Sequence record: PZ674596.1 | Direction: 5' to 3' (one strand) | From: a phage | Length of the DNA stretch: 64,000 nt | In this document: piece after piece, positions 27,001 to 30,000 of the stretch | Layout: the number at the start of each line of letters is the position of its first letter | Numbering within the stretch: the stretch's first letter is position 1 | Position numbers: made by a program

Positions 27001-30000
27001 GTTGGAGTAGGTGCTTTCTCATCAATCGGTTGCAATGCTGAATGATAGGTAAGTACACACCTACAACAAAAGGGTGAAATGTGATATAAATCCGCCATCC
27101 CGATTTGACTTTTCATGGAGGAAAACATGTCGAACGAGATGGCGGGCGTTACAACAGAGCAAGTTGAGCGTATTGCCGCGATCGTTGCTCGGGAGGTTGT
27201 TGGCAAATTAGGTAAAGAGCTACGTGAAGAAATTGGCCAGGAGGTCAATGATCAGCTGAAAACCTACTTTGGTGATATGACCCCGGCGCAACATAGTATT
27301 CAACACTCCAATCTGGACAAACTCCTTAACCGGTTAGATTCCATCTCAAGTGGGTTCTTTGGCGGCATTGTTTCTAAAATAACGTCGTTCATTATTACCG
27401 CACTGCTTTTGGGGTTAGCCGCGTATGGCGTAAAAAGTGGACTGCAATAACAGGAGATCAAGGATGAAGACTCCGAGAGGCATTCGTAATAATAACCCCG
27501 GTAATCTTGATAAAGGATCACCGTGGCAAGGTCTGGTTGCGAATCCAGACGAACCGCGCTTTTGCACGTTTAAAGACCCTGTTTGGGGGATTCGTGCGCT
27601 GGCGGTGACTCTAATTACCTACCACGACAAACGTCGCGCAAAAGACGGCTCAAGTATCGATACCATTCGTGAAGTTATTGAACGTTGGGCACCGCCGAAT
27701 GAAAACAATACTGACGCCTACATTAATGAGGTGTCTAAAGCCGTTGGTGTAACCGCAGACATGATCATCGATCTGCATGATTACGACATCCTTCGACCTT
27801 TGGTTGAGGCAATCATTCGCCACGAGAATGGCCGAGGCCCGCTAAAAACGCTGAACACCTGGTATGCGGTAGAAGTTATTGAGGAAGGTCTGCGTCGAGC
27901 TGGCGTTGTTAAGCCGGTGAAAACCGTGAAGGCTGTTCCTGTAACTAAAGAAACCGCAGGCGCAACTGTTACAGCAGGTATTGGTCTGGCGCAGCTGGCC
28001 GATGTTATGCCGCAGGTTTCCGCTGCTATGGATAAAGCACAAGGTCATATCTCTAGCGGGGATACAGTACGCATCATCTTCGGTATTGCCACTATTGTTG
28101 TGGCAGGATTCATTGCCTGGTCGCAGGTAAGAAAACACCAGAAAGGGATGGTCTAATATGCTAGGCAGCCTGATGACAAAGCTAAAAGTTGCTTTGATTA
28201 CGCTGGCTGCCGTTCTTTTCGTTCTTGTCGGCGCTTACACGATGGGCGGGAATGCGGTGCGACGAGCAATGGAAGAGAAGGCAAAACAGGAAGACAGAAA
28301 ACGACTTCAAAGCACAGTGGAAGTGGTGAATGAGACGAGCAATAAAATACGTCAGAAAGATTCTTCTGCCGTTCATCGTGAGTTGTATGATAAGTGGGTG
28401 CGTCATTAAACCACAAACCGCCAGCGTATTGTTCTGCGATGGAGCTGGGCCTATCTATATCAGCAATAATGATGTGATGACCGAAGAAACCGAACGCCAA
28501 ATCCTTTTTCACAATACGATGGGAGAGAGAGTTTGCGGTTGGTGATGCGAAGTTCCCCTCACTTGAGGGGAGTACATTATTCTTCGAACAATTTTTCGAT
28601 AGATTTTGTAGGATAGAACAAAGAACGCTCGTTGTTACCAACCAGCTGGATAAAGTCTAAACTTTTATAAAACGCCTTGGCTTTGTCATTTAACGCCTCA
28701 ACGAAAAGTCCATGAATGCCTACAGCAAGAGATGCATTGTACACAACGCGCATTGCATGTGTTACAAGCATTGAGCCAAATCCTTGACCTTGAAGGGACT
28801 TGTCCAAAGCCAGCCTACCCAAAGTAACACTTGGAACATTCCGATAAGGTACCTTCTTTTGCTGGCTTCTTGAAGGTAAGGACTCCTTTTCAAAGCAGCT
28901 ACCTGACAAAGTGTAATACCCTAACACTTTTGGTCTGCCTTCTTTCGTGCAAAGCACATAAGCGCGAAGAATTTTTCCCTCATGCTGCCTTTTTAAGTGG
29001 TTGGTTAAAAAGGCATTTAGTGATTCTTCACCGCAATCAAAACCATTCAAATCATAATCTTTCTCTCCAGAGAAAATTTCTATCTTTATATTATCCACGA
29101 GTAAACTACTCCATGCTTTTCAGACGATCAGCAGCTCGTTTCAGCTTGTCGTTCGGTGCCGGAGGATTGCTTATAGCGTCCATAACCAGATTCCAGGATT
29201 CTTCATTCAGAACTAGTCTACGGTGTTGCTCTATAACTTTCACGGCACGTTCAGATGCACTGCTAACCATAAACTGAGTAATGCTCTGGTTAGACATTGC
29301 GGCAGCTTCCTCGATGATGCTTTTATCGTCATCGGTTAATCTCAAATCGATGCGCTGCTTTTTTAGTGCTGACATGTATTCCTCCTGATGGCCGTGATGT
29401 AGGAAGGCCATCAATCTCCTCTGTTCAAACTGAGTTTTCGACTCAAAAATTACTTTAAAAGGCTATAGCCCATTACGTGTGCATTATCAAATTGTGTACG
29501 GCATATCACCGTACTTGTAATATAGAGGTCATTGTTACTTTTTTCAACAGACAAATACAAGCTATGTTTGCCAATTGTTAATCACAACCTACCATTTAAC
29601 CTTTACACCGCAGCCGTAGGCATTTAGGCTATATCACATATAAGAAAACAAGTTGTTTCAGACGATAATTATATACGCAAAGGGAACTCTCCAATGACCA
29701 AGATCTTTGTGGTTGGCGGCACAAAGGGCGGGCCTGGCAAATCCACCGTTGCCCAGCAAATTGCCGTTTGCCTGAAAGTCAAAAAGAAGAAGAAGGTTTA
29801 TATTACCGATATAGATATTCAGCGCACGACAACGAGCTGGTGTGAAGACCGTCGACAGAACGAAGACCTTGAGCTGATTCCTTTTGCATACGTTCAGGAT
29901 GACATCATTAAGCACCTAAAATCGCTTCAGGGTAGAGCTGAGTTTGTAGTGGTAGATGCTGGTGGCTTCGACTCCGAAATTCAGCGACAAGCGATGCTGA

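Follow-up and report, generated by a model that had tools for sequence, protein, structure and literature searches.

How a phage endolysin whose membrane anchor lies at its C-terminus gains access to the cell wall, and what the small membrane protein encoded just ahead of it contributes, are the questions raised by a group of four genes in the phage sequence record PZ674596.1. The stretch of this record analysed here comprises 64,000 nucleotides and is referred to as the window. An earlier note, made from the sequence alone, had proposed a lysis cassette at 27115-28575, and four plus-strand open reading frames (ORFs) are indeed found there, with matches to PHROG 873, 1026 and 1275. The region very probably serves an SSU5-like phage-plasmid as its late lysis cassette, equipped with an endolysin of the Enc34/M4Lys family.

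The cassette and the element that carries it

The four ORFs follow one another in the order first gene, endolysin, i-spanin and o-spanin.

27127-27450, plus strand: first gene, a holin candidate or holin regulator of 107 amino acids, ending 13 nucleotides upstream of the endolysin start
27464-28156, plus strand: endolysin gene, 230 amino acids, with an AGGAG Shine-Dalgarno sequence ahead of its ATG at 27464 and its stop codon at 28154-28156
28158-28409, plus strand: i-spanin, 83 amino acids, matching PHROG 1026 'Rz-like spanin' (5.3e-24)
28330-28545, plus strand: o-spanin, a precursor of 71 amino acids, matching PHROG 1275 (7.2e-24)

Over positions 26800-28700 the window is 99.9% identical to E. 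coli plasmids of about 110 kb (CP025888 and NZ_MG904996), while the DNA of Escherichia phage Cyrano is 98.4% identical and that of Salmonella phage SSU5 81.5%. Judged by these identities, the source element is an SSU5-like phage-plasmid of E. coli. Of 5,426 complete E. coli genomes, 249 (~4.6%) carry the cassette proper (27127-28545), every time on a plasmid, and it is kept in 406 plasmid records; because of this conservation it is no chance pattern. Cyrano (CYRAN_22-25) and SSU5 (gp26-gp30) have the same genes, labelled holin, endolysin, Rz and Rz1, and these database labels are positional only. All four genes are called 'hypothetical protein' in RefSeq E. coli plasmids, and for the share of complete genomes given above this labelling can now be corrected. 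Scans of all four proteins against Pfam and NCBIfam gave no match above threshold. The Pfam comparison was among the checks that the earlier note had suggested, and the hydrolase fold of the central gene product came to light instead through a crystal structure, as described below.

The endolysin's catalytic domain

The endolysin begins at ATG 27464 and its N-terminus reads MKTPRGIRNNNPGNL. A GTG codon at 27437 was set aside as the start, as the ATG has the Shine-Dalgarno sequence and agrees with the homologues.

27464-27913, plus strand: catalytic domain of the Enc34/PHA02564 type, residues 1-150
residues 7-15, plus strand: IRNNNPGNL motif
27686-27688, plus strand: Trp75
27719-27721, plus strand: Tyr86
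27824-27826, plus strand: Glu121, catalytic by homology

The protein matches PHROG 873 'endolysin' (1.5e-87), and its residues 3-151 match the crystal structure of ORF39 of the Hafnia phage Enc34, 7Q47 (phmmer E 3.5e-54), the two catalytic domains being 64% identical. An AlphaFold model, made from an input alignment of 40 homologues, has predicted local distance difference test (pLDDT) values of 79-97 across residues ~21-150, and Foldseek matched this model to 7q47_B with an E of 3.3e-15, a target-normalised TM-score of 0.82 and 59% identity. Trp75, Tyr86 and Glu121 are invariant in the 40 homologues and align with Trp79, Tyr95 and Glu131 of Enc34, respectively, in the numbering of the Enc34 paper, which is one below that of the RefSeq translation. 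In that paper, superposition with homologues led to the naming of Glu131 as the catalytic glutamate, and Trp79 and Tyr95 are conserved (PMC8943055). The endolysin is thus assigned by homology to the PHA02564 or 'V' domain class, of the Enc34/M4Lys type, a class that the earlier note had thought could not be assigned from sequence by eye.

The activity of this type of enzyme has been described for homologues. The catalytic domain of Enc34 is muralytic and the full-length ORF39 is toxic (PMC8943055). With M4Lys, the endolysin of Salmonella phage BSPM4, mass spectrometry revealed the loss of N-acetylglucosamine and hence a beta-N-acetylglucosaminidase activity (PMC7143992). The full-length window protein is ~55% identical to the Chivirus endolysins, membrane module included. 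It is from the papers on these homologues that we take the enzymatic activity, the toxic effect of the whole protein, the need for the membrane module and the dispensability of holin and Sec, all of which may, by analogy, apply to the window protein.

The same catalytic domain is also found inside K1F gp16-like and D3112-like virion proteins, PM2 P5 and E1004 Gp29 (PDB 9VVP), a comparison that concerns internal virion and tape-measure proteins. The central gene could on this ground be taken for a virion-associated cell-wall hydrolase used in infection rather than for a lysis enzyme. Such a role is scarcely credible for a free-standing protein of 230 residues that has a membrane module and is encoded after the tail genes, between a small membrane protein and the spanins, and whose orthologue M4Lys lyses cells from within (PMC7143992). 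Moreover, the annotation of the 103-kb RefSeq record of SSU5 names no further endolysin over its first 100 kb, although this part holds many hypothetical genes; a canonical endolysin elsewhere, which would have spoken against the earlier note, was not encountered in that part of the relative.

The C-terminal membrane module and its topology

The C-terminal third of the protein, as delimited by hydropathy and conservation, is made up of the following parts.

27914-28156, plus strand: linker and C-terminal membrane module
residues 151-164, plus strand: lysine-rich linker
27956-28027, plus strand: proximal helix, residues 165-188, weakly hydrophobic and rich in Gly, Ala, Ser and Thr
residues 189-201, plus strand: short acidic loop with a conserved ISSGD
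28067-28126, plus strand: distal transmembrane helix, residues 202-221, strongly hydrophobic
C-terminus, plus strand, directly before the stop codon at 28154-28156: cationic tail RKHQKGMV

A single C-terminal transmembrane helix had been claimed for this protein. The sole strongly hydrophobic stretch, at residues 204-222, has a Kyte-Doolittle mean of 2.07 over 19 residues and, together with the match to 7Q47, supports 27464-28156 as the gene for a membrane-anchored endolysin. A second, weak helix at ~165-188 had been overlooked. Its Kyte-Doolittle maximum over 17 residues is 0.8-1.8, it is counted in the literature as a second transmembrane helix (PMC8943055, PMC6498227), and two helices rather than one should be counted in the C-terminal module that forms the anchor. 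The C-terminal anchor, put forward as an open oddity, is real, and publications have described it since 2019-2022.

Over residues 157-230 the module is 95% identical to that of SSU5, 51% to that of iEPS5 and 47% to that of Enc34. The consensus of the 40 homologues reads PVTKET..A......G..Q.....P....A.........S, then the hydrophobic helix, then ..Q.KKHQ.G, and 19 positions are invariant within residues 159-221. Judging from this alignment, the conservation of the module exceeds the needs of a plain anchor. A tblastn search with the module alone returned 170 phage records, and among 60 sampled rows solely this endolysin family was present, Chivirus and Enc34 included. The idea of a portable module that is also attached to other catalytic domains found no evidence in these 60 rows, phage AP1 not being among them.

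Averaged over the 40 homologues, the net charge is +3.5 in the linker (with ~5 Lys/Arg), -1.4 in the proximal helix, which is essentially free of Lys and Arg and consists to 53% of Gly, Ala, Ser and Thr, -1.1 in the loop and +2.2 in the tail. The topology of membrane proteins tends to follow the positive-inside rule. Because the Lys/Arg-rich linker, the acidic loop and the cationic tail fit this rule, a hairpin with both the N-terminus and the C-terminus inside (N-in/C-in) is favoured, and we would give this topology about an even chance of being correct. Up to a breach of the membrane, the catalytic domain would then stay on its cytoplasmic face. TMHMM predicts the same N-in/C-in arrangement for the endolysin of phage Siskin (PMC6498227).

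The charge pattern fits poorly with a single-span protein with its N-terminus outside, and the remainder of the sequence bears on the same point. The N-terminus, MKTPRGIRNNNPGN, is hydrophilic, and hydropathy analysis detects no hydrophobic window before residue 160. A signal-anchor-release (SAR) endolysin was rejected on this basis, the N-terminal, weakly hydrophobic transmembrane segment that acts as a Sec export signal being absent. A reversed version of this design, in which the endolysin would span the membrane once as N-out/C-in and the distal helix would hold the exported catalytic domain inactive in the periplasm, is quite improbable. Depolarisation of the membrane by the first-gene product, in the role of a pinholin, would bring about release, much as with SAR endolysins except that the anchor is at the opposite end. 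The analogy was raised by the authors of the Enc34 study (PMC8943055); the cationic tail would keep the C-terminus inside, the proximal helix has a SAR-like composition (G+A+S+T 0.53), and M4Lys both lyses cells holin-free and is given a periplasmic N-terminus by Phobius and Phyre2 (PMC7143992). Besides the missing N-terminal signal, however, ~195 residues, comprising the folded domain and the positively charged linker, would need a passage through the membrane for which no pathway is known, lysis by M4Lys was not blocked by azide (PMC7143992), and the Siskin prediction has both ends inside.

The first gene and the variable slot

The holin-like gene had been started at 27115. A start at 27127 is likely, as this ATG has GGAGG 5 nucleotides upstream and homologues are called from the equivalent position, whereas ATG 27115 is without a Shine-Dalgarno sequence of its own. 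The in-frame ATG at 27115, four codons 5' (M-E-E-N-M, 27115-27129), is nonetheless kept in Cyrano, SSU5 and Photorhabdus, in four relatives in all. The pair of codons could be a dual-start motif or could reflect mere conservation of the overlapping GGAGG.

The one C-terminal transmembrane helix claimed for the product stands. The sole hydrophobic stretch is at the extreme C-terminus (residues 81-99, Kyte-Doolittle mean 2.02 over 19 residues; helix ~81-103), and a lone C-terminal transmembrane helix is likewise found in 40 of the 44 aligned relatives. The N-terminal part is helical and charged and contains the conserved motif FGDM..QHSIQH..D, and Gly49, His56 and His60 are invariant in the family, Asp71 nearly so. 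The protein ends in K-S-G-L-Q rather than in the hydrophilic, highly charged tail of a typical holin.

By sequence the protein belongs to PHROG 5093, of unknown function (2.2e-68), as do all 44 aligned relatives, none of which has a Pfam family. Close relatives are confined to SSU5-like elements. When 1.84 billion representatives were searched with a profile, 55 more distant relatives were added, counted as cluster representatives, of 94-150 amino acids, with an Ala-rich N-terminal helix and the motif YFGDM.P..H..QH.R...L...D. The gene context was readable for four of the distant members.

L016, 3001-3453: PHROG 5093 member after tail genes and before a DUF5675 protein, a protein with two transmembrane helices and an Rz-like spanin
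L017, 3001-3426: PHROG 5093 member in the same arrangement as in L016
L018, 212-619: PHROG 5093 member after a tail-fibre gene, overlapping a soluble Amidase_2 endolysin; next comes an Rz-like spanin in which a lipoprotein ORF is embedded
L019, 1021-1374: PHROG 5093 member preceding a protein that has at least three hydrophobic stretches

DUF5675 has been proposed to be a C82-like peptidase lysin (2026 preprint, 10.64898/2026.04.11.717860). The PHROG 5093 family therefore opens cassettes with three types of lysin: PHA02564 with a transmembrane domain (the window and the Photorhabdus SSU5-like element L011), Amidase_2 (L018) and DUF5675 (L016 and L017). Because the family recurs as the first cassette gene with these three types, a holin role can be argued for on classical positional grounds, and the product is a small membrane protein adjoining an endolysin, as expected of a holin. 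The label 'holin' is nevertheless one of position. A genuine holin role is possible, if somewhat short of an even chance, and the holin-like neighbours of the distant members equally fit an antiholin or regulator role for the first gene. It is possible, though less likely than not, that the first gene, whose family has products of roughly 100-140 amino acids with a presumably cytoplasmic helical part, encodes a new lysis timer, which might either constitute its own tail-anchored class of holin or be an antiholin that gates a holin-like C-terminal hairpin of the endolysin.

Comparison of lineages with C-terminally anchored endolysins reveals that the endolysin and the two spanins form a constant trio while the upstream partner gene differs. 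The following proteins occupy the upstream slot.

Enc34, L012 (1642-2001), L014 and L015: Chi-type protein
window and L011: PHROG 5093-type protein
Alcaligenaceae prophage L009, 2205-2504: unrelated protein with a C-terminal transmembrane helix
L013, 411-1483: protein of the Pfam family Phage_holin_3_3, plus LysC
Pasteurella prophage L007, 2231-2488: protein without a transmembrane helix

Homology of the window first gene with Enc34 ORF38 and iEPS5 gp37, the Chi-type proteins, was rejected by alignment, and with the Alcaligenaceae protein a profile comparison gave a probability of 0.3%. RefSeq names Enc34 ORF38, the protein in the holin slot (L004, 19820-20164), 'Rz-like spanin', which is an annotation slip.

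The exchange of the partner protein bears on a further alternative, namely that the C-terminal module itself forms the hole, so that the endolysin is a holin-endolysin fusion and the upstream protein an antiholin or timer and not a holin. M4Lys alone lyses E. coli without a holin and azide does not block this lysis, deletion of its membrane module abolishes lysis, the module alone is bacteriostatic, and lysis came slightly later when the upstream gene was co-expressed (PMC7143992). A partner that can be replaced by unrelated proteins, and even by one without a transmembrane helix in the Pasteurella prophage, would suit such a fusion, as would the 19 invariant positions of the module and the separate holin-like proteins, with two or three transmembrane helices, that adjoin the distant PHROG 5093 members in L016, L017 and L019. 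A built-in holin is all the same unlikely. The module, when scanned alone against Pfam and PHROGs, matched no holin family and returned its own endolysin PHROG and sub-threshold noise only. Holin-independent lysis has been seen under T7 over-expression only, and the Enc34 authors caution that it may be an artefact (PMC8943055). Furthermore, in the L013 lineage the same endolysin has a Pfam holin and LysC as its partners, and a real holin is needed by the soluble Amidase_2 endolysin that follows the PHROG 5093 member of L018.

The spanins

The overlapped arrangement of the spanins, with the lipobox inside the i-spanin gene, was described correctly in the earlier note. The o-spanin gene begins within the i-spanin gene and ends past its end, and the codon of the lipobox cysteine falls in the shared part. 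The lipobox terminates a lipoprotein signal peptide at the N-terminus of the o-spanin.

28390-28401, plus strand: o-spanin lipobox I-S-G-C, with the Cys24 codon at 28399-28401 and Val at +2

The i-spanin has an N-terminal transmembrane helix at about residues 9-29 (Kyte-Doolittle mean 2.38 over 19 residues at 11-29), followed by a short, charged, helical periplasmic part. It is free of cysteine, and therefore lambda-like covalent i-spanin dimers are impossible; the o-spanin keeps two more conserved periplasmic cysteines, Cys36 and Cys69. The combined periplasmic length of the two proteins is ~100 residues, within the published range of 62-300. The i-spanin aligns with Enc34 ORF40, and the o-spanin with its counterparts in SSU5, Enc34 (ORF41) and iEPS5 (gp34), PHROG 1026 and 1275 being common to the window pair and Enc34 ORF40/41. 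The spanin database places the SSU5 pair in the overlapped class and the SSU5 o-spanin in the 'Chi' o-spanin family (PMC6139136). On these alignments, the window genes encode an overlapped two-component pair of the Chi/Enc34 family. The 'Rz1 spanin' of Cyrano (L001, 3883-4002) is annotated from a Val codon 3' of the lipobox and lacks a lipoprotein signal, and the Cyrano DNA does hold the full lipoprotein ORF of 71 amino acids.

A proposed course of lysis

From these features we infer a topology, a role for the first gene and an order of events. The first-gene product, as a small tail-anchored inner-membrane protein in the holin slot, probably sets or tunes the timing of lysis. For the C-terminal module of the endolysin, insertion as an N-in/C-in hairpin is most likely; the enzyme would thereby be kept tethered at the cytoplasmic face up to the breach of the membrane, and the module would itself be membrane-active and required for lysis. 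The all-helical N-terminal PHA02564 domain would then cut the glycan strand, with Glu121 as the putative catalytic acid and with Trp75 and Tyr86 positioning the substrate. The overlapped spanin pair would disrupt the outer membrane last.

A number of points weigh against this proposal. The experimental data all concern homologues, and none concern SSU5-like proteins. With respect to the hairpin, the proximal helix is weakly hydrophobic and contains a conserved acidic residue and a proline, and the model lends it no structural support because confidence is low over residues ~161-200 (pLDDT 41-50; the distal helix, at 198-226, reaches ~70-77). The Phobius and Phyre2 predictions for M4Lys give the opposite topology (PMC7143992), and cytoplasmic tethering does not by itself explain the holin-free lysis by M4Lys. 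For the first gene, neither the protein nor its 44 relatives match a Pfam, NCBIfam or named PHROG holin family, and its structure prediction is poor (pLDDT 46.6). In L016, L017 and L019 the homologue is paired with a holin-like neighbour that has several transmembrane stretches, and the first-gene product may therefore be a regulator and not a hole-former. BSPM4 ORF_37, a first gene that is not homologous to that of the window, neither lysed cells nor freed truncated enzyme (PMC7143992).

Flanking sequences and neighbouring genes

The cassette is bounded by two non-coding features.

27046-27126, plus strand: intergenic leader, conserved in alignment with Cyrano, SSU5 and the Photorhabdus SSU5-like element
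28552-28573, plus strand: terminator-like hairpin from a consensus scan, with a 9-bp stem, 5 G-C pairs and a weak T-run

The leader holds a palindrome beside the cor stop codon, an extended -10-like TGTGATATAAA, CCCGATTTGACT and the Shine-Dalgarno sequence GGAGG. In SSU5 the palindrome has perfect 9-bp arms, TAGGTAAGC and GCTTACCTA. The leader may be a late promoter or operator. A promoter scan 5' of the cassette revealed no consensus sigma-70 site on the plus strand, and the RNA of the leader folds no better than shuffled sequences (z -0.19). The hairpin at 28552-28573 presumably closes the cassette as a terminator held in common with a convergent toxin gene.

This convergent locus, at 28577-29414 on the minus strand, encodes a GNAT toxin of 173 amino acids (Acetyltransf_1/7) and a TacA-type antitoxin (PF08681, 8.6e-26). 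The toxin is called KacT in the annotation of Cyrano and is absent from the equivalent place in SSU5. Positions 29694-30721 encode a ParA-like partition ATPase and then a protein of 119 amino acids that is labelled in Cyrano as a RelE/ParE putative toxin, and genes of plasmid maintenance are hence found close to those of lysis. On the other side, between the tail fibre and the cassette (25942-27045), are genes for an 'outer membrane protein' (PHROG 557), a 'membrane associated protein' (PHROG 425) and a Cor-like protein, a superinfection-exclusion lipoprotein with an LTGC lipobox. In the Photorhabdus SSU5-like element L011 a two-gene module, present in two copies (951-1918, of 103 and 218 amino acids, and 2727-3707, of 83 and 219 amino acids), interrupts the lysis cassette; by size and position the copies look like counterparts of the pair at 25942-26804 upstream of cor. 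SSU5 also carries a gene annotated as 'lysozyme inhibitor LprI family protein' (NC_018843, 86898-87596). Elsewhere in the window, the G+C content rises to 0.534 at 22001-24000, over the repetitive, Ala/Ser-rich part of the tail fibre of 1383 amino acids, and dips to 0.359 at 38001-40000.

Comparison with known systems

The type of endolysin, its C-terminal anchor and the overlapped spanins are already published, and the genes are annotated in SSU5 and Cyrano; in these respects the cassette is not novel. Two modest additions are made here: the family-wide charge pattern that favours a hairpin, and the delineation of the tail-anchored PHROG 5093 family as a component of lysis cassettes. The charge pattern provides a testable topology for how such endolysins cross or breach the inner membrane, and PHROG 5093, a conserved family without a name whose members repeatedly come first in lysis cassettes, is a holin or antiholin candidate. 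Should the first gene be a lysis timer, the SSU5-like phage-plasmids, whose hosts are compatible with E. coli K-12, would be a tractable system for the access of C-terminally anchored endolysins to the wall.

The SAR endolysins, such as P1 Lyz and the R protein of phage 21, which act with pinholins, are likewise membrane-tethered muralytic enzymes with a weakly hydrophobic helix rich in Gly, Ala, Ser and Thr, and they are toxic without a canonical holin, as are the endolysins of the Enc34/M4Lys type. The window endolysin differs from them in having its anchor at the C-terminus rather than the N-terminus, no Sec-type export signal, another catalytic fold, and a charge pattern that points to a cytoplasmic and not a periplasmic catalytic domain. 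LysAP of Acidovorax phage AP1 is an endolysin of 227 amino acids with a C-terminal transmembrane domain (194-216) that is needed for localisation and lysis, but its catalytic domain is of the GH24 family and no spanin has been reported for AP1 (PMC8879335).

Much closer are M4Lys and the Chivirus 'lysis protein A' group, including that of Siskin, which share the full-length identity given above (PMC7143992, PMC6498227). It is for this group, and not for the SSU5-like protein, that the enzyme has been shown or proposed to act as an N-acetylglucosaminidase, to depend on its membrane module and to work independently of holin and Sec. BSPM4 ORF_37 and the proposed 'class IV holin' of Siskin belong to another protein family than the first gene of the window.

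The Enc34 cassette (Cernooka et al. 2022, PMC8943055) resembles that of the window in its two-part endolysin and in the order of its four genes. The two-helix module of ORF39 is homologous, down to the ISSGD loop and the K-H-x-x-G tail, the catalytic domains differ by two short deletions in loops, and the spanins are homologous and overlapped in both. The upstream partners are unrelated, as ORF38 and iEPS5 gp37 have an N-terminal transmembrane helix and a C-terminal coiled coil, whereas the helix of the window first gene is C-terminal. The carriers differ too: Enc34 is a Chi-like siphovirus of 60 kb, and the window comes from a phage-plasmid of 110 kb.

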